Part shown: positions 324 through 57,675 of the stretch, piece by piece
Layout: every line of letters starts with the position of its first letter
Numbering within the stretch: the first letter of the stretch is position 1
Assembly (NCBI GenBank): GCA_028288765.1
Contig: JAQGHQ010000390.1
Span: 3,665-67,664, forward strand
DNA: 64,000 nucleotides
Source of the DNA: Gemmataceae bacterium
GTDB taxonomy: Bacteria; Planctomycetota; Planctomycetia; Gemmatales; Gemmataceae
Direction: 5' to 3'
The notes under the pieces: generated by a model
Databases searched by the model: none
Told to the model about the DNA's origin: nothing
Seen by the model: the letters and a program-made list of their open reading frames with translations, nothing else
Position numbers and translations under genes: made by a program

Positions 324-392
324 AGCCTGAAGGGGTGAAGACCGAGGATTTCGACCAACCACCTGCATAGCCCCGGGCAACGCCCCCGGGTT
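324..392. repeat. Degenerate palindromic repeat (cctgaagggg ... agccccgggcaacgccccc family)
   Basis: Similar motifs at 59707-59750 (ccggaagggg ... agcccagggcatcgccccgg) and 45602 (ggccctgaagggcc). Confidence 0.4.
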
Positions 393-413
393 CTCCCGCC
401 GGAAGCGCACGAT

Positions 414-3400
414 ATGCCGGCCTGCCCGTCCGACACCGACCTGACCGGCTTCCTGAACGAGTCCCTCCCGCCCGACCGGGCCGGCCCCGTCTCCTCGCAC
501 GTCGACGACTGCCCCAGCTGCCAGTCCCGGCTCGACAAGCTGACCGAGGCCACCGAGGCGCCCCGGTATCGGGACCTGTCGACCCTCACCCGGAGCGGCG
601 GGCCCGTCGCGGAAGAACCGCCCCCGGACGCGGTCACCCGCATCCCCGGCCAGGCCCTTCAGAACATCCGGGGCGGCGGGGGACTGCCGGCCGTCCCGGG
701 GTTCGATGTGGTCGCCGAACTCGGCCGCGGCGGGATGGGGGTGGTGTACAAGGCCCGACACCGGCGCCTGAACCGGCTCGTCGCCCTGAAGATGATCCTC
801 GGCGGCGGGGCGGCCGACCCGAAGACCGTCCAGCGGTTCCTCCTGGAGGCGGAAGTCCTCGCCCGGGTCCGGCACCCACAGGTGGTTCAGGTGTACGAGG
901 TGGACACCTACGAGGGGCTGGGCGGGGTGCCGGTCCCGTACCTGGCAATGGAGCTGTTGGAAGGTGGAACGCTGGGCCGCCGGCTGAAGGACGGCCCGCT
1001 CCCGCCCCGGGAGGCGGCCGAGCTGATGGAGGGCCTCGCCCGGGCCGTCCACGCCGCCCACCTCCAGGGGGTCGTCCACCGCGACCTGAAACCGGGGAAC
1101 ATCCTGTTCCCGAGCGCGGAGCTCGGAACGGGGAGCGCGGAATTAAAGCCCGGCCCGGCAGACGGCTCCGCTCCTTCTAGTTCCGCGCTCCGCGCTCCGC
1201 ACTCCGCGCTCTCACCGAAGGTGAGCGACTTCGGCCTGGCGAAGTTCATGCAGGACACCGGGTCCGACCTGACCCACTCCGGGCAGATCGTCGGGACGCC
1301 GGCGTACATGGCCCCGGAGCAGGCGTCCGGGGCCCGGACGCTCGGCCCGGGGGCGGACGTGTACGCGCTCGGGGCGATCCTGTACGAATGCCTGACCGGC
1401 CGCCGGCCGTTCGAGGGCGCGGAGCCGATAAGCGTCCTCCTCCGGGTCGTGAACGAGCCCCCGGTGGACGTCCGGACGGTCCGCCCGGGCACCCCCCGGG
1501 ACGTGGCCGCGGTCGCGATGAAGTGCCTGGAGAAAGACCCGAAGCGGCGGTACGCGAGTGCCGGGGAACTGGCCGACGACCTCCACCGATTCCTGACCAA
1601 CCGGCCGACCATCGCCCGGCCGGCGACCGGGTGGGAGCGGGCCCGGCTGTGGGTCAAGCGGAACACGGCCGAGGCCATCCTGCTCGCGGCGCTGGCCGTG
1701 GTCGTCGCCACCGCGTTCGTCGCCGTTGCCGGGCAGTGGGCCCGGGCCGAGGACAGGGCGGCCGCCGAACACCGCGCGATGGAACAGGCCGAGGCGGCCC
1801 GGACCGAGGTCCAGACCGCGCACCAGGGCGCCATGGCCGCCCTGGCCGAGGCCGGACGGCAGAAGACGGTGGCGGAGCTGCGGGAGGCCCGGCTCGGGTT
1901 CGCCCACGCCCGCGACTGGTGCGAGCAGGGGCAGGTGGAGCACGGGCTCGGCCAGTTCGTCCGCGCCCTGGAGCTGGCGGAGGCGAACGGGGACGCCGAC
2001 CTCGCCCGGGTGATCCGGACGAACCTGGCCGCGTGGGCCGCCGAGCTGCCCCCGCCCCGCAGGGCATTCCCGCACAAGGCCGAGCCGCGGCTCGGGGTGT
2101 TCACCCCGGACGGGAAGCAGCTGGTCACCGCCGGGCGGGAGTGCGGCCTGCACCTGTGGGATCCGAACACCGGGGCCCTCCTCCGGACCTACGAGACCAG
2201 CCTCCTCCTGGTCCGCCCCCTGTTCCCGACGTTCACCTTCTGGACCGCGGCCGTCAGTCCGGACGGGAAGACGATCGCGGCCGGCGGGTCGGACGGGCAG
2301 GTCTGGGTGTGGGACGTCGACCGCCCGGCCCCCCGGGCCGCGTTCACGGCGGCGACCGGCGAGGGGAACGTCTACTGCGTCGCGTTCGCCCCGGACGGCA
2401 CCCTGTGGGCGGTCGACGGGGAGGCGGGGGTGAAGCGGTGGGACCTCGCCGCCCGGCGGGCCGTCACCGAGCTCATGGCGGGCGGGCCCGGCGGCACGGT
2501 CGTGCAGGTCCTGGTCGTCTCCGCGGACGGGGGGCGGGTGTACACCGGCGACCGGGGCGGGCGGGTGCGCGAGTGGGACGTGGGGGCGAAGGCGGTCGCC
2601 CGCGAGTGGGAACTGACCGGCTGGATCAACGACCTCGCCCTGGCGCCGGACGGGAAGGAGCTCGCGGCCACCGGGACCGACGGGCTGTGCCACGTGTTCG
2701 ACCTGGGCACGGGCAAGGAGGTGTACCAGCTCAACCACGCCGGGGCGTACGGGGACGGGGTCGCCTTCCTCCCGGACGGGTCGGCCCTGCTGACGTCCGA
2801 CGGGGACGGGACGGTCCGGGCGTGGAACCGGGCCACCCGCCAGCCGGTCGGGGTCGCCGCCCGGTTCCGGGGGGAGGTGAACCGGCTCCGGGCCCGGCCC
2901 GGGACCGACCAGGTCGCCGTCCCGGCCGGGGACACCGTGTACCTGTATCGGGCGCTCCACTACCCGGGCCTGCTTCTTAACCCCGGGAACACGAGCTGGG
3001 TCAGGGGGGTGGACGTCAGCCCGGACGGAGGGCGGACCGCGGTCGCGGCCGGCGACCGGCTGACTGTGTACCACACCCGGACCGGGGCAGTGGTGGCGGC
3101 GGTCCCGGTGCCGCGCGGGACGATCGCCGTCCGGTTCGACCCTGTCCGCCCCCGGGTCCTCCGCGGGACCCGCGACTCCCTTGAGGCGGTGAGCCTGCCC
3201 GGGGGGGAATACCTGGTGGGTGACCCGGCGACGGTCGGGCGGGTGGCGGATATCGTGGTCACCCCGGATGGGGCGACCGTCCTGACTTGCTCCCCGGGCA
3301 CGGTGAGCCGGTGGGACGCGGCCGGGCTGAGGCTGGCCCAAACCCGGTCGGCCGGGCTCGGGATCCCGCCCGGGCAGTCGATCACCACCCTGGCGCTCCG

Positions 3401-3923
3401 CCCGGACGGCGGGGAGGCCCTGATCGCGTTCGGCACCAGGCTGAAGTTCCTCAACCCGAGGACGATGGAGATCGCCCGCGACGGGTGGGACGCGGAAGAG
3501 CAAGTGCTGGACGCCCGCTACACCCCGGACGGGAAGCGGATCCTGGCCGGCCTGCGGGACAGTACCGCCGAGCTCCTCGATGCGGCCGACGGGCGGCCGG
3601 TCCTGCCGCCACTGCACCACGCCCGGGCGGTGTCGGTGGTCGGGGTGAGCCCGGACGGGGCGGTCCTTCTGACCGGGAGCCGGGACGGGACCGGGCGGTT
3701 CTGGGACGCGGCCACCGGGCTGGCCCTTGGCCCGCCGCTGCGGCATCCCGGGCCGCTTTCCGTCGCGGTCTACTCGCCGGCCGGCGACCGGGTGGCGACC
3801 GGCACGTCGACCGGCCAGGCGTTCACCTGGAAGACGCCGCCCCCGCCCCTGGGCGGGTCGCTGGACGAGGTCCGGGCGAAGGTCCGGGAATGGACCGGCG
3901 AGACGGGCGCGGGCCGGCCGTAG
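414..3923 (+). CDS. Ser/Thr protein kinase with N-terminal HxxxCxxC zinc-finger, central hydrophobic segment and C-terminal WD40 repeats
   Basis: HVDDCPSC; GRGGMGVVY, VALK, HRDLKPGN, DFG, GTPAYMAPE, DVYALG kinase motifs; hydrophobic AILLAALAVVVATAFVAV; many WD40-like blades (FTPDGK...LWD). Confidence 0.95.
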   Translation: MPACPSDTDLTGFLNESLPPDRAGPVSSHVDDCPSCQSRLDKLTEATEAPRYRDLSTLTRSGGPVAEEPPPDAVTRIPGQALQNIRGGGGLPAVPGFDVVAELGRGGMGVVYKARHRRLNRLVALKMILGGGAADPKTVQRFLLEAEVLARVRHPQVVQVYEVDTYEGLGGVPVPYLAMELLEGGTLGRRLKDGPLPPREAAELMEGLARAVHAAHLQGVVHRDLKPGNILFPSAELGTGSAELKPGPADGSAPSSSALRAPHSALSPKVSDFGLAKFMQDTGSDLTHSGQIVGTPAYMAPEQASGARTLGPGADVYALGAILYECLTGRRPFEGAEPISVLLRVVNEPPVDVRTVRPGTPRDVAAVAMKCLEKDPKRRYASAGELADDLHRFLTNRPTIARPATGWERARLWVKRNTAEAILLAALAVVVATAFVAVAGQWARAEDRAAAEHRAMEQAEAARTEVQTAHQGAMAALAEAGRQKTVAELREARLGFAHARDWCEQGQVEHGLGQFVRALELAEANGDADLARVIRTNLAAWAAELPPPRRAFPHKAEPRLGVFTPDGKQLVTAGRECGLHLWDPNTGALLRTYETSLLLVRPLFPTFTFWTAAVSPDGKTIAAGGSDGQVWVWDVDRPAPRAAFTAATGEGNVYCVAFAPDGTLWAVDGEAGVKRWDLAARRAVTELMAGGPGGTVVQVLVVSADGGRVYTGDRGGRVREWDVGAKAVAREWELTGWINDLALAPDGKELAATGTDGLCHVFDLGTGKEVYQLNHAGAYGDGVAFLPDGSALLTSDGDGTVRAWNRATRQPVGVAARFRGEVNRLRARPGTDQVAVPAGDTVYLYRALHYPGLLLNPGNTSWVRGVDVSPDGGRTAVAAGDRLTVYHTRTGAVVAAVPVPRGTIAVRFDPVRPRVLRGTRDSLEAVSLPGGEYLVGDPATVGRVADIVVTPDGATVLTCSPGTVSRWDAAGLRLAQTRSAGLGIPPGQSITTLALRPDGGEALIAFGTRLKFLNPRTMEIARDGWDAEEQVLDARYTPDGKRILAGLRDSTAELLDAADGRPVLPPLHHARAVSVVGVSPDGAVLLTGSRDGTGRFWDAATGLALGPPLRHPGPLSVAVYSPAGDRVATGTSTGQAFTWKTPPPPLGGSLDEVRAKVREWTGETGAGRP
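1112..1211. repeat. Heptamer-repeat palindrome inserted in frame in the kinase domain
   Basis: Left arm gagcgcggagctcggaacggggagcgcggaatt (1112-1144) pairs with right arm agttccgcgctccgcgctccgcactccgcgctc (1179-1211). It lies between HRDLKPGNIL and PKVSDFG. Confidence 0.75.
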
Positions 3924-4001: not shown

Positions 4002-4143
4002 AATCACCACAGAGTCACAGAGGGCACAGAGGAAAAATCAGCCGGATAAACGAATTATTTGACTCGATTTAATTAGTACGTCTCTTCCTCTGTGCCCTCT
4101 GTGCCCTCTGTGCCCTCTGTGCCCTCTGCGACTCTGTGGTTAA
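4002..4143. repeat. caccac-type long hairpin repeat, copy 1
   Basis: aatcaccacagagtcacagagggcacagagg ... (ctctgtgcc)x4 ctctgcgactctgtggttaa, with an AT-rich loop. Confidence 0.85.
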
Positions 4144-4161: not shown

Positions 4162-6402
4162 ATGCGCACTCCCCCGTTCGCCGTCGCGCTCGTCGCCCTC
4201 TCCTGCGTCGCCGCCGACTTCAAGGACGTCAACCCGGCCGTCTTCGCGCCGGACGACCCGCGGGCCAAGGAGCTGCCGAAGATGGTCTGGAACGACGCCC
4301 AGCGGCGGATGCGGGAGGCGAACCTGCGCGAGTCGAGGGCGTTCGCGGCGGTCCAGACCCGCGAACAGTGGGAGGCCTACCGCGACGTCCGCATCAAGGC
4401 GCTGAAGGAGTCGCTCGGCACGTTCCCCGAAGTGCCCAGGGACATGCGGATCGTCGTCACGAAGAAGCTCGACGGCGACGGCTACCAGATTCACAACCTC
4501 GTCTACGAGACCCGTCCCGGGCTGTGGGTGTCGGCGAACCTGTACCTGCCGGCGAGGCCCGTCGAGAAGATGCCCGGCATCCTGATTTCGCACAGCCACC
4601 ACACCCCGAAGACGCACGGCGAGCTCCAGGACATGGGGATGACGTGGGCCCGCTCCGGGGTCGCCGTGCTGGTCCCCGACCACCTCGGCCACGGCGAGCG
4701 CCGGCAGCACGACTTCCGCACCGAGAAGGACTACCCGAAGCCGTTCCGCGTCTCGCGCCAGGACTACTACTTCCGGTACAACTCGAACCTCCAGCTCTCG
4801 GCCGCCGGCGACTCGCTGATGGGCTGGATGGTGTGGGACCTGATGCGCGGGGTGGACGTGCTTCTGAAGCAGCCGGGGGTCGACAAGGACCGCGTCATCC
4901 TGCTCGGGGCGGTGGCCGGGGGCGGCGACCCGGCCGGGGTCGCGGCCGCGCTCGACCCGCGGATCGCGTGCGTGGTGCCGTTCAACTTCAGCGGCTGGCA
5001 GCCGGAATCGAACGCCCCCCCGGATCCCGACCGCGACTTCGCCTGGTTCGGCGACGGCTACTGGGAGAGCACGCGGGGTCTACGCGGCGGGGCGGCCGGC
5101 GGGTTCGCCCACTACGTGATCGTCGGGAGCATCGCCCCGCGACGGCTGATCTACGCCCACGAGTTCAAGTGGGACCCGAAGATCGACCCGGCGTGGCCGC
5201 GGATGCAAAAGATCTACGGCTTCTACGACGCCAAGGACCGGCTGGCGTTCGCCCGCGGGAGCGGCAGCGTGAAGGGCACGCCGCCGGAGAGTACGCACTG
5301 CACGCACATCGGGGCGGTCCACCGGAAAATGATCTACCCGGCCCTGAAGACGTGGTTCGACATGCCAGTACCGGAGGAGTACAGCAAGCGGCGGACGGTG
5401 GATGAACTAACGTGCTGGACGGAGGAAGCGAAGGCGGAGCTGAAGCCGACGGAGTTGTACGACGTGCTCCCAGATCTCGCGGAGAAACGGTTTAAGAAGC
5501 GAGGCGCACGACTGTTCGAAATGCCGGTCGCGGATCGGAAGGTGGCGATACGGAAGGAGTGGGCGACACTCCTCGGGAACATCGAGCCGGCAGCCAACCC
5601 GAAATTGATCGAAGGGAAAACCGAGGCCGTCCCCGAGGGGAAACTCGCCCGGTTTGCGCTCGAGACCGAACCGGGCATCGTGGTGCCGTTCGTCCTCATA
5701 AACCCCACGGCCGCGAAGGCGAAAGCGCCGGTCGTGGTAATGGTGGCCCAGGGCGGGAAGGCGGGGTTCCTGAGGGAACGGGGCGACGCGATCGCGACCT
5801 TCCTGAAGGCGGGTGTGGCGGTCTGCCTGGTCGACGTGCGGGGCACGGGCGAAACACAACCCGGGGACGGGCCCCCGAGCTGGCGGAGTGCCCGGACCTC
5901 GATCTCGCAGACCGAACTCATCCTCGGCCGGACGGTCCTCGGGAATCAGCTCCGGGACCTGCGAGCGGTCATCCGCTGGCTGCGGGCCCGGCCGGACCTG
6001 GACGGGAGGAGAATCGCAATGTGGGGCGATTCGTTCGCCGAACCGAACTCAAACGACATGACGCCGTACGTCCCGCTCGACGCTCCGGATCTTCCGAAAT
6101 ACGCGGAACCCGGAGGGGCAATGCTCGCGGAGCTGGCCGTGGTTTACGAGGACGGGATCGAGTGGCTATACACCCGCGGTGGACTTGAAAAATTTCAGGG
6201 TGCATTCTGGGGTTTGGCGTATCTGTACGTGCCCCACGAATCAGTCATGCCTCGGGGTTCGTACTTCTGGCTCCTGGGAGCCGCTGGTGACATTGGTCTG
6301 TGCCTTGAGGCTCCGGTCGATGTTTGGAATCGCCAGAGCAGGAAGCCACGACCGCCGACCGAGAACGCTAGCAAGCTCGCCGAGGTGATGAACAGGAAGT
6401 GA
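4162..6402 (+). CDS. Secreted protein with two tandem alpha/beta-hydrolase (acetylxylan esterase-like) domains
   Basis: Signal peptide MRTPPFAVALVALSCVAA; VSANLYLP..PGILISHSH, DHLGHGER, WDLMRGVDVL; second domain VCLVDVRGTGET...DLRAVIRWL...IAMWGDS. Confidence 0.8.
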   Translation: MRTPPFAVALVALSCVAADFKDVNPAVFAPDDPRAKELPKMVWNDAQRRMREANLRESRAFAAVQTREQWEAYRDVRIKALKESLGTFPEVPRDMRIVVTKKLDGDGYQIHNLVYETRPGLWVSANLYLPARPVEKMPGILISHSHHTPKTHGELQDMGMTWARSGVAVLVPDHLGHGERRQHDFRTEKDYPKPFRVSRQDYYFRYNSNLQLSAAGDSLMGWMVWDLMRGVDVLLKQPGVDKDRVILLGAVAGGGDPAGVAAALDPRIACVVPFNFSGWQPESNAPPDPDRDFAWFGDGYWESTRGLRGGAAGGFAHYVIVGSIAPRRLIYAHEFKWDPKIDPAWPRMQKIYGFYDAKDRLAFARGSGSVKGTPPESTHCTHIGAVHRKMIYPALKTWFDMPVPEEYSKRRTVDELTCWTEEAKAELKPTELYDVLPDLAEKRFKKRGARLFEMPVADRKVAIRKEWATLLGNIEPAANPKLIEGKTEAVPEGKLARFALETEPGIVVPFVLINPTAAKAKAPVVVMVAQGGKAGFLRERGDAIATFLKAGVAVCLVDVRGTGETQPGDGPPSWRSARTSISQTELILGRTVLGNQLRDLRAVIRWLRARPDLDGRRIAMWGDSFAEPNSNDMTPYVPLDAPDLPKYAEPGGAMLAELAVVYEDGIEWLYTRGGLEKFQGAFWGLAYLYVPHESVMPRGSYFWLLGAAGDIGLCLEAPVDVWNRQSRKPRPPTENASKLAEVMNRK

Positions 6403-8052: not shown

Positions 8053-8112
8053 TGTAGGGTGGGCACCGCCCACCTCTGGCCTCAGCTCTTGGCGGGCAGT
8101 GCCCACCCTACA
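8053..8112. repeat. GTAG-type REP-like inverted doublet, copy 2
   Basis: tgtagggtgggcaccgcccacc ... ggcgggcagtgcccaccctaca; same ends as 243-296. Confidence 0.8.
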
Positions 8113-8296: not shown

Positions 8297-10447
8297 GTGA
8301 CTCCGCGGTTCTGTCTCCCACTCCTGCTGCTTGCCGCGCCCGCTCCGGCGCTCGCCGCCGATTCGTTCCACTTCGAGAACGACATCCTTCCCATCCTCGG
8401 CCGGTACGGGTGTAACTCGTCCGGGTGCCACGGGAAGGCCGAGGGACAGGGCGGGTTCAAGCTCTCCGTCTTCGGGTCCGACCCGGACGCGGATGTCGCC
8501 GCGCTCACCAAGGAAGGCCGCGGGCGGCGGGTGTTCCCCGCCAGGCCCGAGGAAAGCCTCATCCTGCGGAAAGGCTCGGGCCGCACCGCCCACGGCGGCG
8601 GGACGAAGCTCGTCTACGGGTCCGAGGACTACCAGCTGGTCCGCGACTGGATCGCCGCCGGCACGCCGGTCGGCTCGCCCGACGCCCCGCGGGTGATCGG
8701 CCTGCGGGTCGAACCCGGCGAGCGGGTGATGGGCGTGAAGGCCGAGGTGCAGCTGCGCGTCGTCGCGCGGTACTCGGACGGCGTCGAGAAGGACGTGACC
8801 CACCACGCCCGGTTCCAGTCGAACAACGAGATGGTCGCAACCGTGACGGCGACCGGGCTGATCCGGTCGCTCGACGTCCCGGGCGAGGCCGCCGTCATGG
8901 CCGCCTATCTGGGCGAAGTGGGCCTGTTCCGGACGATCGTCCCGCGGCCCGGCCCGCCGGCCGTCGCTCAAAATCTCCCACAGTACAACTTTGTCGATCA
9001 GCTGGTCGACAACAAGCTCGCCAAGCTGAATGTGACCGCTTCCCCTGTGTGTGACGACGCCGAGTTCCTCCGGCGGGTGTACCTCGACCTGACCGGCACG
9101 CTTCCGCCCCCCGCCGCGGCCCGGAAGTTCCTCGCCGACCCGTCCAAAGACAAGCGGGTGAAGCTGGTCGAAGATCTCCTGAAGACGCCGGAGTTCGCCG
9201 ACCTGTGGGCGATGCGGTGGGCCGACCTGCTGCGGGTCGAGCGGGCCGCGCTCGGGCACGAGCGGGCCTACGGCTACTACAGTTGGGTCCGCAATTCGGT
9301 GGCGGGGAACAAGCCGTTCGACCAGTTCGCCCGGGAGCTGGTGACGGCCGAGGGACCGCTGGCCGAGATCGGGCCGGCGAACTTATACAAGGTGGTGACG
9401 AAACCGGGCGAGATGGCGGGGGCGATCTCCCAGGTGTTCCTCGGGGTGCGGATCGGCTGCGCCGAGTGCCACCACCACCCCTTCGACCGCTGGACGCAGG
9501 CCGATTATTACGGGATGGTCGGGTTCTTCGCCCCGGTTGCTGCCCGCGGGGGGAAGGACGCCGAGGCGGTGTTCGCCACCGGGGACCCGGCCACGAATCA
9601 CCCGCGGACCGGCAAGCCCGTCTTCGCCCACGCCCTCGGCGCGACCGCCCCGGACGCCAACCCAAAAGGCGACCGAAGGCTCGTACTCGCCGACTGGATG
9701 ACGAGGCCCGACAACCCGTACTTCGCCCGCAACCTCGCGAACCGCGTGTGGGGTTGGCTGCTCGGGACGGGACTGGTCGAGCCGGTGGACGACGCCCGGG
9801 CGACGAACCCGCCGAGCAACCCGGAACTGCTCGCCGCCCTGGCGAAGTACACCACCGAGAACAAGTACGACGTCCGGAAGCTCATCACGCTGATCACGGC
9901 GTCGCGGACGTACCAGACGTCGAGCCGGCCGAACGCGACCAACGAGAAAGACGAGCGAAACTTTTCCCGGGCGCAGTTCAAGCGGCCGGACGCCGAGGTG
10001 CTGCTCGACATCGTCTGCCAGGCGACCGGGGTGCCGGAGAGGTTCACCGGCTCGCCCGGGACCACGCGGGCGGTGCAGCTGTGGGACAGCAAGGTTCGCA
10101 GTGACTTCCTCAAGCTGTTCGGCCGGCCGAATCGGGTGACCGCGTGCGAGTGCGAGCGGACGCGGGAGCCGAGCGTCGCCCAGGTGCTGAACCTGCTCAA
10201 CTCGCCGGACGTGCAGGCGAAGCTGTCGCACGAGGCCGGCACGGTCGCCAGGCTGGTGAGGGAGCAGACGGACGACGGCAAGCTGGTCGAGGAACTGTAC
10301 CTGACGTTCTTCGCCCGCCTCCCGACCGCCGCCGAGAAAGACTTCGCCGTCGGCCACCTGAAGACTCACACCGCGAGCCGTCGGCAGGCCGTCGAGGATC
10401 TGGCGTGGGCGCTCTTGAACAGCACGGAGTTCCTGTTCAATCATTGA
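8297..10447 (+). CDS. DUF1549/DUF1553 (PSD1-type) planctomycete protein with N-terminal CxxxxCH motif and Ig-like domain
   Basis: GTG start at 8297 after gagga; signal peptide; FENDILPIL..GCNSSGCHG; D.EFLRRVYLDLTG; FLGVRIGCAECHHHP; FARNLANRVW; DLAWALLNSTEFLFNH. Confidence 0.9.
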   Translation: MTPRFCLPLLLLAAPAPALAADSFHFENDILPILGRYGCNSSGCHGKAEGQGGFKLSVFGSDPDADVAALTKEGRGRRVFPARPEESLILRKGSGRTAHGGGTKLVYGSEDYQLVRDWIAAGTPVGSPDAPRVIGLRVEPGERVMGVKAEVQLRVVARYSDGVEKDVTHHARFQSNNEMVATVTATGLIRSLDVPGEAAVMAAYLGEVGLFRTIVPRPGPPAVAQNLPQYNFVDQLVDNKLAKLNVTASPVCDDAEFLRRVYLDLTGTLPPPAAARKFLADPSKDKRVKLVEDLLKTPEFADLWAMRWADLLRVERAALGHERAYGYYSWVRNSVAGNKPFDQFARELVTAEGPLAEIGPANLYKVVTKPGEMAGAISQVFLGVRIGCAECHHHPFDRWTQADYYGMVGFFAPVAARGGKDAEAVFATGDPATNHPRTGKPVFAHALGATAPDANPKGDRRLVLADWMTRPDNPYFARNLANRVWGWLLGTGLVEPVDDARATNPPSNPELLAALAKYTTENKYDVRKLITLITASRTYQTSSRPNATNEKDERNFSRAQFKRPDAEVLLDIVCQATGVPERFTGSPGTTRAVQLWDSKVRSDFLKLFGRPNRVTACECERTREPSVAQVLNLLNSPDVQAKLSHEAGTVARLVREQTDDGKLVEELYLTFFARLPTAAEKDFAVGHLKTHTASRRQAVEDLAWALLNSTEFLFNH

Positions 10448-10460
10448 GAGAAGAGAAATG

Positions 10461-10577
10461 TTCACCACGAAGGCACAAAGATCACACAACGAACACCAAG
10501 AAAGGCATAATGAAACACTGGAGTTTCCCCTTTGATCTCTCTGTGTTCTTTGTGTGATCTTTGTGCCTTCGTGGTGA
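10461..10577. repeat. caccac-type long hairpin repeat, copy 2
   Basis: ttcaccacgaaggcacaaagatcacaca ... tgtgtgatctttgtgccttcgtggtga. Confidence 0.85.
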
Positions 10578-11997: not shown

Positions 11998-12010
11998 GAC
12001 CTGGAAGAAG

Positions 12011-12130
12011 ATTTCACCACAAAGGCACGAAGATCGCACAAAGATCACGGAGAAAGCAAAGAAGAGTTTGACTTCAGACCTGCTCTAGCTTCGTGCCCTT
12101 TATGTGATCTTCGTGCCTTTGTGGTGAAAT
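12011..12130. repeat. caccac-type long hairpin repeat, copy 3
   Basis: atttcaccacaaaggcacgaagatc ... gatcttcgtgcctttgtggtgaaat. Confidence 0.85.
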
Positions 12131-12161
12131 CTTCGATTTGATTCCTGCCTGGGGATTTCCA

Positions 12162-13481
12162 ATGCCCTCTTCCTACTGCGACGGCCTGACCCGGCGGGAC
12201 GCCCTGCGCGTCGGCACCGCGGCCGTGTTCGGGTCGGCCCTCGGGCTGCCCCAGCTGCTCCGGGCGTCCGAGTCGGCGAAGCCCCCGAAGGACGTGTCGC
12301 TCATCTTCGTCTTCCTGCACGGCGGGCTGTCCACGATCGACACCCTCGACATGAAGCCGGACGCCCCGGCCGAGTTCCGCGGGGACTTCAACCCGGTCAA
12401 GTCAAAGGTGCCGGGGATGGATCTGTGTCACCTGCTCCCGAAGCTCGGGCAGCAGGCCGATAAGTTCTCCCTCGTGCGGTCGTTCCGGCACCACAACTCG
12501 GACCACGGCCCGGCCGACCACTACATCTTCACCGGGTACTTCCCCCAGGCCGGGTTCAACCCGAACCTGACCCCGAACAACCAGCGGCCGTGCGTCGGGT
12601 CGGTGGTCTCCCGCAAGCTCGGGCCGAAGGGGTCGGTCCCGGCCTACGTGGCGCTGCCGAAGATGCACCCGAGCGGCGGGCCGGCGTACCTCGGGGCGGC
12701 CCACGCCCCGTTCGTGATCGACGCCGACCCGAACGCCCCGACCTTCTCCGTCCCGGACCTGCTCCCCCCACCCGCGATCGCCGCCGACCGGCTCGACGAC
12801 CGCAAGCGGCTGCTCGAAACGGTGGACCGGTTCCACCGCGAGGCCGAGGCCCGGGCGAACCGGTCGGCCGGGGCGGTCGGGACGTTCCGGGACAAGGCGT
12901 TCGACCTGATGACCTCGCGGGCCGCGAAGCAGGCGTTCGACATCGCGGCCGAGCCGGACAAGCTCCGCGACGAGTACGGCCGCAATACGCTCGGCCAGAG
13001 CTGCCTGATGGCCCGCCGGCTGGTGGAGGCGGGCGTCCGGTGCGTGACCGTCGACCACAGCAACTACGACACCCACGACGGGAATTTCGCCACCCTGAAG
13101 AACACGCTCCTGCCGATGTTCGATGCCGGCATCACCACCCTGTTCCGCGACCTGTCCGCCCGCGGGCTTCTCGACTCGACCCTGGTGGTCGTGACCGGCG
13201 AGTTCGGGCGGACCCCGCGGATCAACAAGAACGCCGGCCGCGACCACTGGGGCCCGGCGTTCACCGTCCTGGTGGGCGGCGGCGGGCTGAAGGGCGGGGT
13301 GGTGGTGGGCAAGAGCGACGCCCGCGCCGAACGCCCGGCGACCGACCCCTACGGCCCGGAAGACCTGTTCTTCACGGTCTACTCCCAGCTCGGGATCAAC
13401 CCGAAGGACGAGGTCCACACCCCCGACGGCCGCCCGACGGCGCTGGTCAACAACGGGAAGCTGATCGCGGAGCTGGTCTAG
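12162..13481 (+). CDS. DUF1501 domain-containing protein
   Basis: ATG at 12162 (MPSSYCDGLTRRDAL); GGLSTIDTLDMKP; MARRLVEAGV; YDTH; GEFGRTPRIN; GRDHWG. Confidence 0.93.
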   Translation: MPSSYCDGLTRRDALRVGTAAVFGSALGLPQLLRASESAKPPKDVSLIFVFLHGGLSTIDTLDMKPDAPAEFRGDFNPVKSKVPGMDLCHLLPKLGQQADKFSLVRSFRHHNSDHGPADHYIFTGYFPQAGFNPNLTPNNQRPCVGSVVSRKLGPKGSVPAYVALPKMHPSGGPAYLGAAHAPFVIDADPNAPTFSVPDLLPPPAIAADRLDDRKRLLETVDRFHREAEARANRSAGAVGTFRDKAFDLMTSRAAKQAFDIAAEPDKLRDEYGRNTLGQSCLMARRLVEAGVRCVTVDHSNYDTHDGNFATLKNTLLPMFDAGITTLFRDLSARGLLDSTLVVVTGEFGRTPRINKNAGRDHWGPAFTVLVGGGGLKGGVVVGKSDARAERPATDPYGPEDLFFTVYSQLGINPKDEVHTPDGRPTALVNNGKLIAELV

Positions 13482-13484
13482 GAC

Positions 13485-13601
13485 TCACCACAAAGGCACG
13501 AAGTTTTCACAAAGGGACACAAAGAAGGCGGAAGAGAATCATGGTGAGCGTTACTCGCTTTCTTTGTGTCCCTTTGTGTCTCCTTTGTGTCTTCGTGGTA
13601 A
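13485..13601. repeat. caccac-type long hairpin repeat, copy 4, overlapping the start of the next gene
   Basis: tcaccacaaaggcacgaag..cacaaagggacacaaaga / tctttgtgtccctttgtgtc..cttcgtggta; ATG 13541 lies in the loop. Confidence 0.8.
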
Positions 13602-15799
13602 GTGCATCTGCGAACCCACCCATCGCGAGCTACGTCTACCCGGCCGGCGGGCAGCGCGGGACCACGGTGCCGGTCCGCGTCGGCGGGCTGTTCCTGCACG
13701 AGAAATGCCGGTTCGCCCTCGACGGCAAGGGGCTCGCCGCCTCGCCCGTGCTGACCCGAACGAAACCGATCTGGTTCGAAGGCCCGGTCCTTCCGCTCCC
13801 CGACTCGCAGCAGGCCGAGGACTACCCCGCCGACATGGCCGGGTCGGTGGCGATCGCCAAGGACGCCGCGCCCGACCCGCGCCGGGGGTGGGTATTCACC
13901 TCGCAGGGCGGGGCCGGCGGGCTGGTGTTCGTCGTCGGCGACCTACCCGAGGTCATTGAGAAGGAGGTCGACGGCGACTCGATCCCGGAACGGATCACGC
14001 TACCGGTCACCGCCAACGGCCGGATCTTCCCGCGCGACAACCTCGACCTCTGGGAGTTCGACGCGGACGCCGGACAAACAGTCACCGCCTCGCTGGTGGC
14101 GAAGTCGCTCAACTCGCCGCTCGCCCCAAGGCTCGAAATCCTCGACACCGCCGGCCACGTCCTCGCCGAGAACATGATCCACCCCGTGACCGGGGCCGAC
14201 GAGTCGGTCCGGCTCACCGCCCCGGCGAAGGGGAAGTACCGGGTGCGGGTCGGCGACGCCCGCGGGCAGGGCGGCCAGGCCCACATCTACCGGCTGACGG
14301 TGACCGCCGCCGCGGTGCCGGACTTCGCGTTTCCGCTCAAGGTCGCCCCCGACGGGCTGACGGACGTGGTCGCGAAGGCCGACGTGGTCCCCGCGCCCGC
14401 CGCCCTCAACGGGAAGCTCGTGAAGCCCGGCGCCGCCGACGAGTGGCGGGTGGGGCTGAAGAAGGGCGGCCGGTACACGCTCGACCTCCAGGCCCGGCGG
14501 GCCGATTCCCCGCTCTGCGGGGTGGTGACGGTCCTCGATGCCACCGGCAAGGAACTCGCCCGCGCGGAAGCCGCCGACCCGTCGGCCGACCCCACGCTCG
14601 CGTTCCAGCCGCCGGCCGACGGGGTGTACACGGTCCGCGTCGCCGAGCGGTTCCGCGGCCGGGGTGGCCCGAATTTCGCCTACCGCCTGCGGGTCACCGA
14701 CGGAACCGGTACCTCCCCGCCCGGGTTCCGACTCTCGGTCCAGTTCGACACCCGCCAGGGGCAGACGGACGCGGTGACGGTCCTCCGCGGCGGCACGGTC
14801 AAGGTGAAGGTGAACGTGGACCGCATGGGCGGGTTCGCCGGCCCGGTCGAGGTGAGCGCCGCCGACCTGCCGAAGGGCGTCGCGGCCAAGCCGGTGACGA
14901 TCGCGGCGAACCAAACGGCCGGGGAGCTGACCATCCAGGCCGACGCGACCGCAGCCGTGACCACCGTTCCCCTCGCGATCACCGGGACCGCCGCCGTCGG
15001 GCCGGTGCTACTTTCGGTCACCGGGGCCGCGGCCGTCGAGGTGAAGACCCTGCGGGTCCCGGCCGTGGTCCCCGGCACGCGGTTCCTCCCGGACACACGG
15101 GTGCTCCACCTCGCCGTCGGCGTCCCGACGCCGTTCAAGATCGTCGACGAATACGTGATGACCTCGGCCCCGCGCGGGGAGGTCTACCGCCGGAAGTACC
15201 GGGTCGAGCGGGAGACGGGGTTCGACGGGCCGATCGAGGTCCGGCTCGCCGACCGGCAGGCCCGGCATCTTCAGGGCGTCACCGGGCCGGTCCTCGTGGT
15301 CCCGGCCGCCGCGACCGACGTCGAGTACCCGGCGACGCTCCCGCCGTGGATGGAGCTCGGCCGCACCTGCCGGGTGTGCGTGATGGCGGTCGGGAAGGTG
15401 AAAGACGCGGACGGGACGGAGCACACGGTCAGCTTCAGCTCGACCGGGCAGAACCAGCAGATGATCGTGGTCGTCGGCCCCGGCCGGCTGGACCTGAGCC
15501 TGGACCGGCTGACGGTGCGGGCGGAGCCGGGCGGCGAGGTCCGGGTCTCGCTGAAAGTCGCCCGGGCCCGCGACCTAACGGGGCCGGTCAAGGTCGAGGT
15601 GCTCATCCCGGAGCACTGGAAGGGCGTGTCGGCCGACGTGGTGACGGTCCCGGCGGACACGCAGGCCGGGGAGTTGGTGGTGCGGTTCGCGGCCGGCGAG
15701 GCCGGGCCGTTCAACATGCCGCTCACCGTCCGGGCGACGCTGGCCACCCCCGCCTCGGCGGTCACCGCCGAGGCCAAACTGGAAGTCGTGGGCCGGTAG
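13541..15799 (+). CDS. Secreted PPC-domain (pre-peptidase C-terminal) planctomycete protein
   Basis: MVSVTRFLCVPLCLLCVFVVSASA then NPP..YVYPAGGQRGTTV; repeated D.W.F.A..GQ / G.Y.V.V PPC-like units. The upstream part of ORF 12590 is a shadow of the DUF1501 gene. Confidence 0.85.
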   Translation: MVSVTRFLCVPLCLLCVFVVSASANPPIASYVYPAGGQRGTTVPVRVGGLFLHEKCRFALDGKGLAASPVLTRTKPIWFEGPVLPLPDSQQAEDYPADMAGSVAIAKDAAPDPRRGWVFTSQGGAGGLVFVVGDLPEVIEKEVDGDSIPERITLPVTANGRIFPRDNLDLWEFDADAGQTVTASLVAKSLNSPLAPRLEILDTAGHVLAENMIHPVTGADESVRLTAPAKGKYRVRVGDARGQGGQAHIYRLTVTAAAVPDFAFPLKVAPDGLTDVVAKADVVPAPAALNGKLVKPGAADEWRVGLKKGGRYTLDLQARRADSPLCGVVTVLDATGKELARAEAADPSADPTLAFQPPADGVYTVRVAERFRGRGGPNFAYRLRVTDGTGTSPPGFRLSVQFDTRQGQTDAVTVLRGGTVKVKVNVDRMGGFAGPVEVSAADLPKGVAAKPVTIAANQTAGELTIQADATAAVTTVPLAITGTAAVGPVLLSVTGAAAVEVKTLRVPAVVPGTRFLPDTRVLHLAVGVPTPFKIVDEYVMTSAPRGEVYRRKYRVERETGFDGPIEVRLADRQARHLQGVTGPVLVVPAAATDVEYPATLPPWMELGRTCRVCVMAVGKVKDADGTEHTVSFSSTGQNQQMIVVVGPGRLDLSLDRLTVRAEPGGEVRVSLKVARARDLTGPVKVEVLIPEHWKGVSADVVTVPADTQAGELVVRFAAGEAGPFNMPLTVRATLATPASAVTAEAKLEVVGR

Positions 15800-22719: not shown

Positions 22720-22881
22720 TTTGGTGTTTGGTGTTTGGTGTTTGGTGTTTGGTGTTTGGTGTTTGGTGTTTGGTCGTCCGATCCATATTCAGGGAACTAA
22801 ACACCGATCCGTGCTGTTGCCACTGGACTGACTCGACCGCCGGACAAGACACAAAGGGCTAAACACGAAACACCAAACACG
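22720..22881. repeat. Heptamer tandem repeat (tttggtg) x7-8 with an opposing aaacac(g/c) x3 arm
   Basis: 22720-22774 tandem tttggtg; 22861-22881 aaacacgaaacaccaaacacg is the near reverse complement. Confidence 0.85.
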
Positions 22882-25079: not shown

Positions 25080-25173
25080 CTCACCACAAAGGCACGAAGA
25101 TCACACAAAGGCCACAAAGTGATCGTCCCGTTTCTTTGTGGCCTTTGTGTGATCTTCGTGCCTTTGTGGTGAG
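25080..25173. repeat. caccac-type long hairpin repeat, copy 5 (perfect 40-bp stem, 14-nt loop)
   Basis: ctcaccacaaaggcacgaagatcacacaaaggccacaaag / exact reverse complement. Confidence 0.92.
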
Positions 25174-45531: not shown

Positions 45532-45820
45532 CTCGCTCCCACGCTCGGCGCTATGCATTACCCACAACGTCACGTCGTGACGGGTATCTTTGGGTTTTTC
45601 CGGCCCTGAAGGGCCGGTTTGCTCGTGGCCCAGGTCTCCAGACCTGTGCTGGTACCCCTTCTGCTCCGAGGCCGGCGTCTTTCTCTCCTCGCCACGGTTC
45701 CCGACCGGGGTGCCTGCACAGGTCTCCAGACCTGTGCCACGGGGAGTCGGTCCCTTCGGACCTGTAAGAACAAGGGGCAGATCGTCCTGGGTCATGCGTA
45801 GCCCAGAGCGTGGGAACGAG
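45532..45820. repeat. Nested composite palindromic element
   Basis: Outer 33-bp IR (45532-45564 / 45788-45820, 5 mismatches) enclosing a gtggc(c/a)caggtctccagacctgtgc doublet (45625-45740) and ggccctgaagggcc (45602-45615). Confidence 0.75.
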
Positions 45821-57527: not shown

Positions 57528-57675
57528 CCCGGGTGGCATGTCCACGGCTTTGCGTGGACATGGGGAGCCGGTGGACGGGGGGCTGATCCCGACCACAGAT
57601 TCGGTCGAGCCGGCGGTCATCCGGGATCATCGAAGCCCCCCATGTCCACGCAAAGCCGTGGACATGCCACCCGGG
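57528..57675. repeat. REP-like doublet, perfect 38-bp inverted repeat between treY and treZ
   Basis: cccgggtggcatgtccacggctttgcgtggacatgggg and its exact reverse complement at 57638-57675; each has an internal 10-bp stem. Confidence 0.9.

Follow-up and report, generated by a model that had tools for sequence, protein, structure and literature searches.

The junction between a DUF1501 gene and a PPC-domain gene

The stretch of DNA analysed here, a 64-kb piece of contig JAQGHQ010000390.1 from a Gemmataceae bacterium (hereafter the window), contains a long palindrome at the junction between a gene for a DUF1501 protein and a gene for a predicted secreted protein, and the right half of this palindrome lies within the start of the second gene. 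The DUF1501 gene (12162–13481, + strand; Pfam PF07394, E = 8e-99) encodes a protein with an N-terminus resembling a twin-arginine translocation (Tat) signal (MPSSYCDGLTRRDALRVG) and ends with the TAG stop codon at 13479–13481. The downstream gene (13541–15799, + strand) codes for a protein of 752 aa, of which residues 169–237 form a pre-peptidase C-terminal (PPC) domain (PF04151, E = 4.5e-10); 1365 homologues of this protein were found, the closest of them in Gemmataceae. These homologues and the gene content of the window (PSCyt2/PSD1, DUF1501 and PPC genes) are those expected of a soil-dwelling member of this family. The palindrome begins 1 nt past the DUF1501 stop codon and consists of two 48-nt arms (13483–13530 and 13556–13603, 81% complementary) separated by a 25-nt spacer. 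RNA folding of positions 13480–13625 gave a minimum free energy (MFE) of −70.1 kcal/mol, compared with −37.7 ± 4.0 kcal/mol for 200 dinucleotide shuffles (z = −8.1), none of which (0/200) was as stable. The perfect 17-mer CACAAAGGGACACAAAG is present in one copy per strand (expected matches, 0.04), and the GC content at 13483–13603 dips to 0.57–0.59, the window mean being 0.70.

The left arm (13483–13530, + strand) is built of CACAAAG/CACGAAG units and is non-coding here, all three of its frames being hydrophilic (hydropathy −1.5 to −2.0). The loop (13531–13555, + strand) contains the ATG of the PPC gene (13541–13543) at the hairpin apex, the motif GAATCATG and the first codons of the signal peptide n-region (MVSVT), and a purine run resembling a Shine-Dalgarno (SD) sequence (GGAAGAG, 13530–13536) lies in the stem top and loop. 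The start codon is located in the apical loop and not in the stem, and the purine-rich stem top pairs with the first codons of the hydrophobic region (h-region). In the frame of the gene, the right arm (13556–13603, + strand) reads R6-FLCVPLCLLCVFVV-S21, with the whole h-region (13559–13600) inside it. The mean hydropathy of the used right-arm frame is +2.4 and that of the other two frames +1.3 and +0.9; by composition two of the three frames are open, and one unused frame ends in the TGA of GTGGTGA. An earlier reading of this DNA made without database searches (the sequence-only reading) had placed ATG 13541 in the loop of a caccac-type hairpin, with the ribosome-binding site (RBS) and start codon enclosed by the stem and the entire hydrophobic core encoded by the right arm. 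This geometry was recovered in all its parts: the ATG is at the apex of the MFE structure, the stem encloses the SD-like purines and the start codon, and no h-region nucleotide falls outside the arm. A search of the whole window against Rfam gave no match at gathering thresholds, and the sub-threshold hits were generic microRNA-precursor hairpins that are meaningless here.

Tripartite features read from the sequence predict that the first 24 codons (13541–13612, + strand) encode a Sec signal peptide cleaved by signal peptidase I (SPase I). The n-region MVSVTR is positively charged (Arg6), orthologues having K/R in the same region, the h-region FLCVPLCLLCVFVV comprises 14 uninterrupted residues with a mean Kyte-Doolittle value of 3.1, and the c-region SASA forms a junction A-S-A↓N (↓, predicted cleavage site) that follows the AXA rule, with small residues at positions −3 and −1. 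The right arm encodes residues 6–21 of MVSVTRFLCVPLCLLCVFVVSASA↓NPP; the predicted cut falls after A24, and the mature protein would begin at N25 (13613). A lipoprotein signal was rejected by inspection, as no lipobox ([LVI][ASTVI][GAS]C) fits the Cys positions.

Between the DUF1501 stop codon and 13541 no in-frame ATG, GTG or TTG is present, in agreement with the sequence-only reading, which had seen no earlier ATG and no other hydrophobic stretch before the mature protein. The in-frame alternatives TTG 13574 and GTG 13595 would shorten or remove the h-region, and the first in-frame start past the arm, GTG 13667, lies inside the invariant mature domain. Residues P26, P27, Y31, P34, G36, Q38 and G40 are invariant among 30 aligned orthologues, and the junction A↓NPP(V/T)ASY(I/V)FPAGGQRG, with its conserved Ala at −1, is common to about 100 orthologue N-termini. 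Because this mature N-terminus is invariant in orthologues and starts only 9 nt past the arm, translation has to start within or upstream of the arm, and, with a signal peptide needed here by all orthologues, a start downstream of the repeat is excluded. Since the arm is the only h-region available in the window, the start codon would be the loop ATG 13541 or the neighbouring GTG 13544. We infer from these features that translation is initiated at 13541 and that the peptide is exported and cleaved.

Signal peptides of PPC orthologues and of a second protein family

N-termini were compared among the best 120 of the 1365 homologues, and DNA loci were taken from 80 species-level genomes and additional contig look-ups. 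Among the best 120 orthologues, 59 have repeat-type h-regions, 39 have ordinary ones and 22 are shortened gene calls; for close Gemmataceae orthologues the share of repeat-type h-regions is about 55–60%. The repeat-type h-regions end in ...(F/S)VV(S/N/K) in 27 cases (‘VVx’ frame), in ...LCGE in 24 (‘CGE’ frame) and otherwise in eight. An ATG and a K/R-containing n-region upstream of the arm are conserved in every full-length orthologue. At ten PPC loci (L004, L008, L014, L016, L017, L018, L022, L026, L053 and L054) the palindrome is complete, its loop containing the start codon and its right arm encoding the h-region, with MFE values of −49 to −81 kcal/mol and an arm subtype that varies by genome (CACAAAG, CACAGAG or CGCAGAG). 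In a relative from a soil metagenome with about 89% nucleotide identity the hairpin is kept (−76 kcal/mol), and despite five substitutions in the left arm and seven in the right arm the peptide MMSVSRLLCAPWCLLCVFVVNASG↓NPP is still hydrophobic.

Orthologues without the repeat but with the same signal sequence would speak against the proposal, put forward in the sequence-only reading, that a repeat provided the Sec h-region. Those found carry different, ordinary signal peptides instead, such as MTFRLAALAALILAGRAAA↓NPP, and on this point the comparison of orthologues supports the proposal. One example is L003, the DNA of which contains no palindrome and encodes a textbook signal directly before the junction; distant homologues likewise have ordinary signal peptides adjoining the upstream DUF1501 gene. 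A similar signal at palindrome-less loci was encountered in L001/L006 (FLCGPLCLLGVFVG), where a decayed right arm is present in the DNA. The DUF1501–PPC synteny is present in most related loci and is old. The distance from the end of the DUF1501 gene to the mature N-terminus is 53–83 nt in several repeat-free loci and 133–178 nt in loci with the palindrome; as the latter is less than the length of a palindrome plus an intact signal peptide, the arm would have replaced the old h-region and not been added to it. In L072 the palindrome lies upstream of the gene's own signal peptide and the distance is 221 nt, and the sequence of this locus appears to show an additive ‘pre-capture’ state.

The two arms differ in their fate. 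The right arm alone is kept and is still coding in L001/L006, L009, L012, L019, L021, L028 and L059, where the left arm is absent or swapped for unrelated GC-rich palindromes. The arm DNA of L001 (72% protein identity) has become richer in GC while the peptide is conserved, and L001/L006 have lost the left arm together with the upstream synteny. In L013, L020 and L023 the palindrome is split: the left arm abuts the DUF1501 stop codon, the right arm, which encodes the signal peptide, is located about 0.8 kb downstream, and the loop is filled by an open reading frame (ORF) of 235–242 aa with no Pfam match (L013, 9264–9971; L023, 9217–9945; the corresponding stretch in L020). Among the PPC loci examined, none combined an isolated left arm with an ordinary signal peptide. 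The DUF1501–PPC spacers of L009, L012, L015, L028 and L059 contain other GC-rich palindromes of unrelated sequence, and the spacer between these two genes resembles a general target of palindromic elements.

These comparisons also bear on whether the repeat is translated at all. Were it an untranslated 5' leader and the predicted N-terminus a gene-calling artefact, the true start would be the GTG GTA/GTG at the arm end or a codon further downstream. Many repetitive extragenic palindromic (REP) sequences at predicted ORF N-termini have been judged possibly extragenic, as the actual start may be located beyond the predicted one (Di Nocera et al. 2013, PMC3733652), open arm frames would arise from composition alone, and several of the 22 short calls among the best 120 orthologues begin with ‘VVN...’ or ‘VVS...’. 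However, a start at GTG 13595 gives MVSASA-NPP without any h-region, the repeat-free orthologues all have classical signal peptides ending at the same A↓NPP junction, the ATG and K/R n-region stand upstream of the arm in every full-length orthologue, and the right arm and its peptide were kept after the loss of the left arm and the rise in GC (L001), so that we regard such an artefact as very improbable. Shortened database N-termini were noted in the PPC family (P0058, P0062, P0074, P0077, P0078, P0085, P0089 and P0091, the last being the Urbifossiella limnaea entry) and in the hydrolase family described below (P0189, P0225 and P0233). They begin at or just past the GTG GTG of the arm end (VVNPVFAN..., VVSSSS..., MNPAFLRAS...), lack a signal peptide and are probably mis-calls caused by the repeat. 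Database searches with the signal peptide itself were uninformative, short hydrophobic queries being unusable at that database size: a 51-aa concatenation of two signal-peptide variants gave three word-sharing candidates and no match in a collection of 5.8 billion proteins, and a phmmer search with 30 aa (RRRKRI plus the signal peptide) against 1.84 billion representatives gave one repetitive protein (P0121), which is irrelevant because it matched through the artificial RRKRI part.

A repeat copy sampled by its DNA pattern only (L148) was found to head a long ORF with a high GC content at third codon positions (GC3), which codes for a dienelactone-hydrolase-like alpha/beta hydrolase of 757 aa. 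The members of this hydrolase family are about 750 aa long, and the similarity of the L148 protein to the PPC protein is confined to residues 1–28, the signal peptide. A junction of their own, A↓(E/D)PLPNTKPLTE, is conserved among the orthologues of L148, and 52 of 90 have repeat-like h-regions according to a peptide-motif heuristic. All six hydrolase loci analysed at the DNA level (L148 and L205–L209, L209 being a locus in the complete genome of Frigoriglobus tundricola, CP053452.2, with the hydrolase gene at about 2,052,872) carry a complete palindrome whose loop contains the start codon, and L205–L209 show the layout of the PPC loci, with the DUF1501 stop codon followed by the left arm, SD-like purines and start codon in the loop, and the right arm. 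In this family the arm is read in all three frames (LCVxLC, SAFSAVK and VSLWL). The arm peptide of L205 (LLCVPLCLLCVFVV) is almost identical to that of the window, whereas L206 encodes SAFSAFSAVK, L207 LCVSVSLWLV and L208 FFFVFFVTIVVK; the frame used in L207 is possible because its subtype ends in GTGGTTAG and not in GTGGTGA. L210, a hydrolase orthologue free of the repeat, lacks a DUF1501 neighbour and encodes an ordinary signal peptide, and distant hydrolase homologues have unrelated, ordinary signal peptides.

A peculiarity specific to the PPC family can be rejected as an explanation, given that the hydrolase family shows the same pattern. When the cassettes of two PPC and two hydrolase genes from four genomes were aligned, the mean identity was 73%, and the aligned region included the loop, G(A/G)NGAGCNGA(A/G)TCATG. 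As the loops are homologous across the two families and unrelated in non-coding copies, the start-codon-bearing version of the repeat is common to these junctions. Transposition, conversion between the 3' ends of paralogous DUF1501 genes or duplication of a block may account for this sharing.

A dispersed family of palindromic repeats

The sequence-only reading had treated the hairpin as one of a repeat type, and this was borne out: the window contains five clear copies and one odd variant. The family ends are TCACCAC(A/G)AAGGCAC...GTGCCTT(T/C)GTGGTGA, with 7-nt cores spaced 9–11 nt apart, and copies are 90–135 bp in size, share the low local GC content (0.57–0.59, against the window mean of 0.70) and are inverted repeats over their whole length. 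[quoted passage not shown] Four of the five copies are non-coding, and the copy at 13483–13603 is the only one in the window that overlaps a gene start. The sister copy at 12007–12134 lies between two DUF1501 genes and ends 27 nt before ATG 12162; that at 10462–10577 occupies the spacer between a PSCyt2/PSD1 gene (ending at 10447) and the first DUF1501 gene (ATG 10621); that at 25080–25173 has perfect 40-nt arms and ends 10 nt before the ATG of an MFS transporter gene (25184); and that at 4006–4140, of the CACAGAG subtype, is followed after 21 nt by ATG 4162, the start of an alpha/beta-hydrolase gene with a signal peptide of its own. This window hydrolase (4162–6399) was considered as an orthologue of the L148 hydrolase and rejected, the similarity being weak (24% over 174 aa). 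The four non-coding copies thus end 10–44 nt before the next co-directional start codon, the genes downstream have their own N-termini, and the loops of these copies are unrelated in sequence. Three of the five copies punctuate the cluster PSCyt2/PSD1–DUF1501–DUF1501–PPC.

A 19-nt arm pattern was matched in at least 120 loci of a metagenome collection, and among the matches listed 76 of 132 arms have a partner arm within 300 nt. The contigs with arm motifs (L085–L204) have very different flanks, with a downstream GC content of 0.41–0.71; the family is widespread and is not limited to one high-GC lineage. Most copies form hairpins in intergenic DNA next to unrelated genes, and in L116 and L163 nested or compound copies are about 230 nt long.

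REP sequences and REPINs are high-copy extragenic palindromes that carry a GTAG or CGTC tag and are associated with REP-associated tyrosine transposases (RAYTs) (Di Nocera et al. 2013, PMC3733652). They are often arranged as inverted doublets that fold into long hairpins; their main place is just past a stop codon, between genes that are co-directional or convergent, and a role as RNA stabilisers or terminators has been ascribed to them (PMC3733652). The present family resembles them in being made of dispersed, mostly extragenic palindromes or inverted doublets, and the placement of the window copies matches. It differs in that the ends (TCACCAC.../...GTGGTGA) bear no GTAG/CGTC tag, the arms consist of short tandem 7-nt cores spaced 9–11 nt apart and no RAYT link is known. 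No transposase is known to be linked to the copies, although the ORFs of the window were not screened exhaustively and an insertion sequence partner was not searched for, and no consistent flanking direct repeat (target-site duplication) was seen at the window copies on reading the sequence. A ‘selfish’ nature of the repeat, as suggested in the sequence-only reading, is plausible in view of the dispersed and mostly non-coding copies.

Several other repeats were noted in the window. The odd variant at 22720–22880 consists of a tandem (GTGTTTG)n array (22720–22775) that faces a degenerate complementary arm (…CACAAAGGGCTAAACACGAAACACCAAACAC; 22843–22880), and looks like an odd relative of the repeat derived from a different heptamer. 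A GTAG-tagged REP family is present as inverted doublets of GTAGGGTGGGCAnnGCCCACC at 244–295 and 8054–8111 (five matches in the window, 0.05 expected); this second family differs from the TCACCAC family, and the genome harbours both. Two long inverted repeats are unrelated to either family: one at 57528–57675 with GC-rich 41-nt arms, 98% complementarity and a 66-nt spacer, and one at 45594–45771 with 65-nt arms and 74% complementarity.

Origin of the signal peptide and role of the hairpin

The comparison with relatives makes it likely that the repeat was exapted as the h-region of the signal peptide. A REP/MITE-like palindrome with 40–48-nt arms of CAC(A/G)(A/G)AG-type heptamers and a 15–40-nt spacer would have come to lie at the DUF1501/PPC junction, with translation of the PPC gene running from the spacer ATG through the right arm. 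The right-arm strand is rich in CT(T/C)TG(T/C)G; this richness in CT(T/C)TGTG places T at second codon positions, and the arm therefore encodes Leu, Cys, Val and Phe. In the Sec signal peptide, with its cut at ASA↓N, the resulting stretch would form the h-region. Distant homologues would preserve the ancestral condition, an ordinary signal peptide abutting the DUF1501 stop codon; in Gemmataceae the repeat would have colonised the junction and its right arm would have taken over the h-region. From then on the right arm would be held by protein-level selection, and the left arm would be free to decay, to be displaced or to be separated. The same capture would have occurred at the second DUF1501-linked secreted family, a capture-competent version with ATG and GAATCATG in the loop being common to both. 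As right-arm frames are hydrophobic, a start codon in the spacer is enough to yield an N-terminal hydrophobic segment, and as the repeats habitually sit about 10–45 nt before start codons, opportunities for capture would be frequent.

The direction of this process is drawn from sequence comparison, and the opposite order may be considered, in which the coding sequence of the signal peptide is the older part, a local inverted duplication of it gave rise to the left arm and the dispersed copies are derived from hairpins of this kind. The loop-plus-arm cassette common to unrelated genes could be taken in this sense, since it suggests that start-codon-headed copies spread or recombine. Against this, a start codon and a downstream in-frame ORF are missing from the great majority of copies, whose loops are unrelated, the family occurs in very diverse metagenome contexts, and distant homologues of both protein families have unrelated, ordinary signal peptides, which leaves the reverse order scarcely credible.

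A different view is that the hairpin is primarily a conserved regulatory RNA module of junctions between DUF1501 genes and genes for secreted proteins, acting in translational control or coupling, mRNA processing or localisation. The 3' arm would then be coding merely by position, and the appearance of a repeat family would reflect selection and concerted evolution instead of selfish spread. Stem-loops at 5' or intercistronic positions that occlude the SD sequence and start codon are found as translational coupling hairpins and RNA thermometers, and REP sequences of the malE-malF type act as stabilisers; such regulatory hairpins are shorter and less stable and open under physiological conditions. 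The stem at the DUF1501/PPC junction resembles them in that it encloses the start codon and SD-like purines directly past the stop codon of the upstream cistron, but it is far longer and more stable (45–50 bp, −50 to −80 kcal/mol), and half of it is signal-peptide coding sequence.

Several observations favour a regulatory module. Orthologous junctions of many genomes share the same architecture, two gene families show it with homologous loops, and the repeat-free L210 lacks a DUF1501 neighbour. SD-like purines are located within the stem top or loop, 5–12 nt before the start codon (GGAAGAG in the window; GAGGAAG and GGAGGAAG in L206, L208 and L209). Arm types differ (CACAAAG, CACAGAG, CGCAGAG and CGCGGAG) while pairing is near perfect, and double compensatory changes were counted at nine of the 20 consensus pairs among 13 elements. 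As the repeat subtype is particular to each genome, this covariation is confounded and would be equally expected if a genome's own repeat variant replaced the local copy. In comparison with the relative of about 89% identity, the divergence of the arms is roughly that of the adjacent coding DNA, and a single compensatory pair was seen. Moreover, the family consists for the most part of ordinary intergenic hairpins with unrelated genes as neighbours, and the left arm has been lost, replaced or displaced, in some cases by about 0.8 kb, in at least ten lineages that keep the gene and the right arm; the stem is therefore not essential. On balance we think it rather improbable that regulation is the primary role. 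Translational control by the stem, which the sequence-only reading had raised, is possible but unsupported, and by analogy the structure would most likely act by default as a REP-like intercistronic stem-loop that protects the upstream mRNA and/or damps downstream initiation. An extension that we rate as conceivable though still unlikely is that the palindrome with its start codon in the loop constitutes a portable bifunctional module of about 120 nt (RNA hairpin, RBS and start codon, signal peptide), which would spread between junctions by transposition or by gene conversion of paralogous DUF1501 3' ends and whose stem would co-evolve with the signal peptide to gate translation or localisation.

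Exaptation of the repeat as an h-region thus remains the explanation we favour, and a number of points weigh against it. A 45-bp stem flanking the start codon should hinder initiation and be a substrate of RNase III, and it fits efficient expression awkwardly, unless the left arm is missing from the transcript or something opens the stem. A scan for sigma-70-type promoters, in which planctomycete promoters are poorly covered, detected none within the element, and the sequencing runs matching the locus are DNA soil metagenomes only. The three or four Cys and one Pro of the h-region are unusual for a Sec signal. On the tree of orthologues the ‘CGE’ and ‘VVx’ frames are interleaved, a pattern that establishes neither simple vertical inheritance nor the number of independent captures. 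Capture is also rare outside the two families, with one clear case (L148) in 132 arms sampled by DNA pattern; in the motif census, which covered the ±10-kb flanks of PPC loci and at least 120 metagenome loci, L148 was the only case outside the PPC family.

Related phenomena have been described in other bacteria. For the YPAL/RU-2 MITE of Yersinia, a repeat-derived signal peptide was proposed at YPO1552 (Delihas 2007, reviewed in PMC2229807). YPAL is likewise a palindromic, dispersed and mostly intergenic repeat with a hydrophobic frame, the in-frame 5' fusion of which forms all or part of a predicted signal peptide (PMC2229807). According to the same text it is an unrelated element of 168 bp from Enterobacteria, and its fusion is a proposed new small exported ORF conserved only in Y. 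pestis and Y. pseudotuberculosis. In the Gemmataceae, by contrast, the repeat would replace the h-region of old, conserved secreted proteins of about 750 aa, it recurs across a bacterial family, in two protein families and in all three frames, the start codon lies in the hairpin loop, and the arm appears to be kept under protein-level selection after decay of the palindrome. Rickettsia palindromic elements (RPEs) are found in frame within protein genes (Ogata et al. 2000, cited in PMC2229807 and PMC3733652). RPEs are also selfish-looking palindromes translated within functional proteins; unlike the present repeat they add surface loops inside proteins and are not known to provide targeting signals, and they belong to another phylum and show no sequence relation.

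In-frame co-option of a palindrome of the RPE/YPAL type is seen here in the position of the arm, between a conserved start codon and n-region and an invariant mature N-terminus. A second in-frame palindrome occurs in the window in a Ser/Thr protein kinase gene (ORF 339–3923, + strand), at 1112–1211, with CGCGGAG-type 34-nt arms that are 85% complementary, an MFE of −83.6 kcal/mol (1095–1230) and a dip of GC3 to 0.78. It encodes about 35 residues (PSAELGTGSAELKPGPADGSAPSSSALRAPHSALSP) between the HRDLKPGN catalytic loop and the DFG motif and is an RPE-like internal insertion of a related repeat, and as such a second case of in-frame co-option. In the literature collection searched, nothing was found on this repeat or on repeat-derived signals in Planctomycetota.

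In-frame palindromic repeats were already known and a repeat-derived signal peptide had been proposed, and the present case differs from them as a variant. It indicates that a targeting signal can come from non-coding, repeat-derived DNA: the hydrophobic frame would be a by-product of the base composition of the repeat, and a start codon in the spacer would turn the arm into an export signal. The orthologue comparisons suggest that such a capture has happened repeatedly and has been long kept in two families of large secreted proteins. With one example known from Frigoriglobus tundricola, a named species whose genome is complete, the turnover of signal peptides and the domestication of repeats can be tested directly, and the locus is a natural system in which an RNA structure and a signal peptide occupy the same nucleotides. 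Many database entries appear to have mis-called starts, shortened at the GTG of the arm or without a signal, which would affect predictions of the secretome in Planctomycetota.

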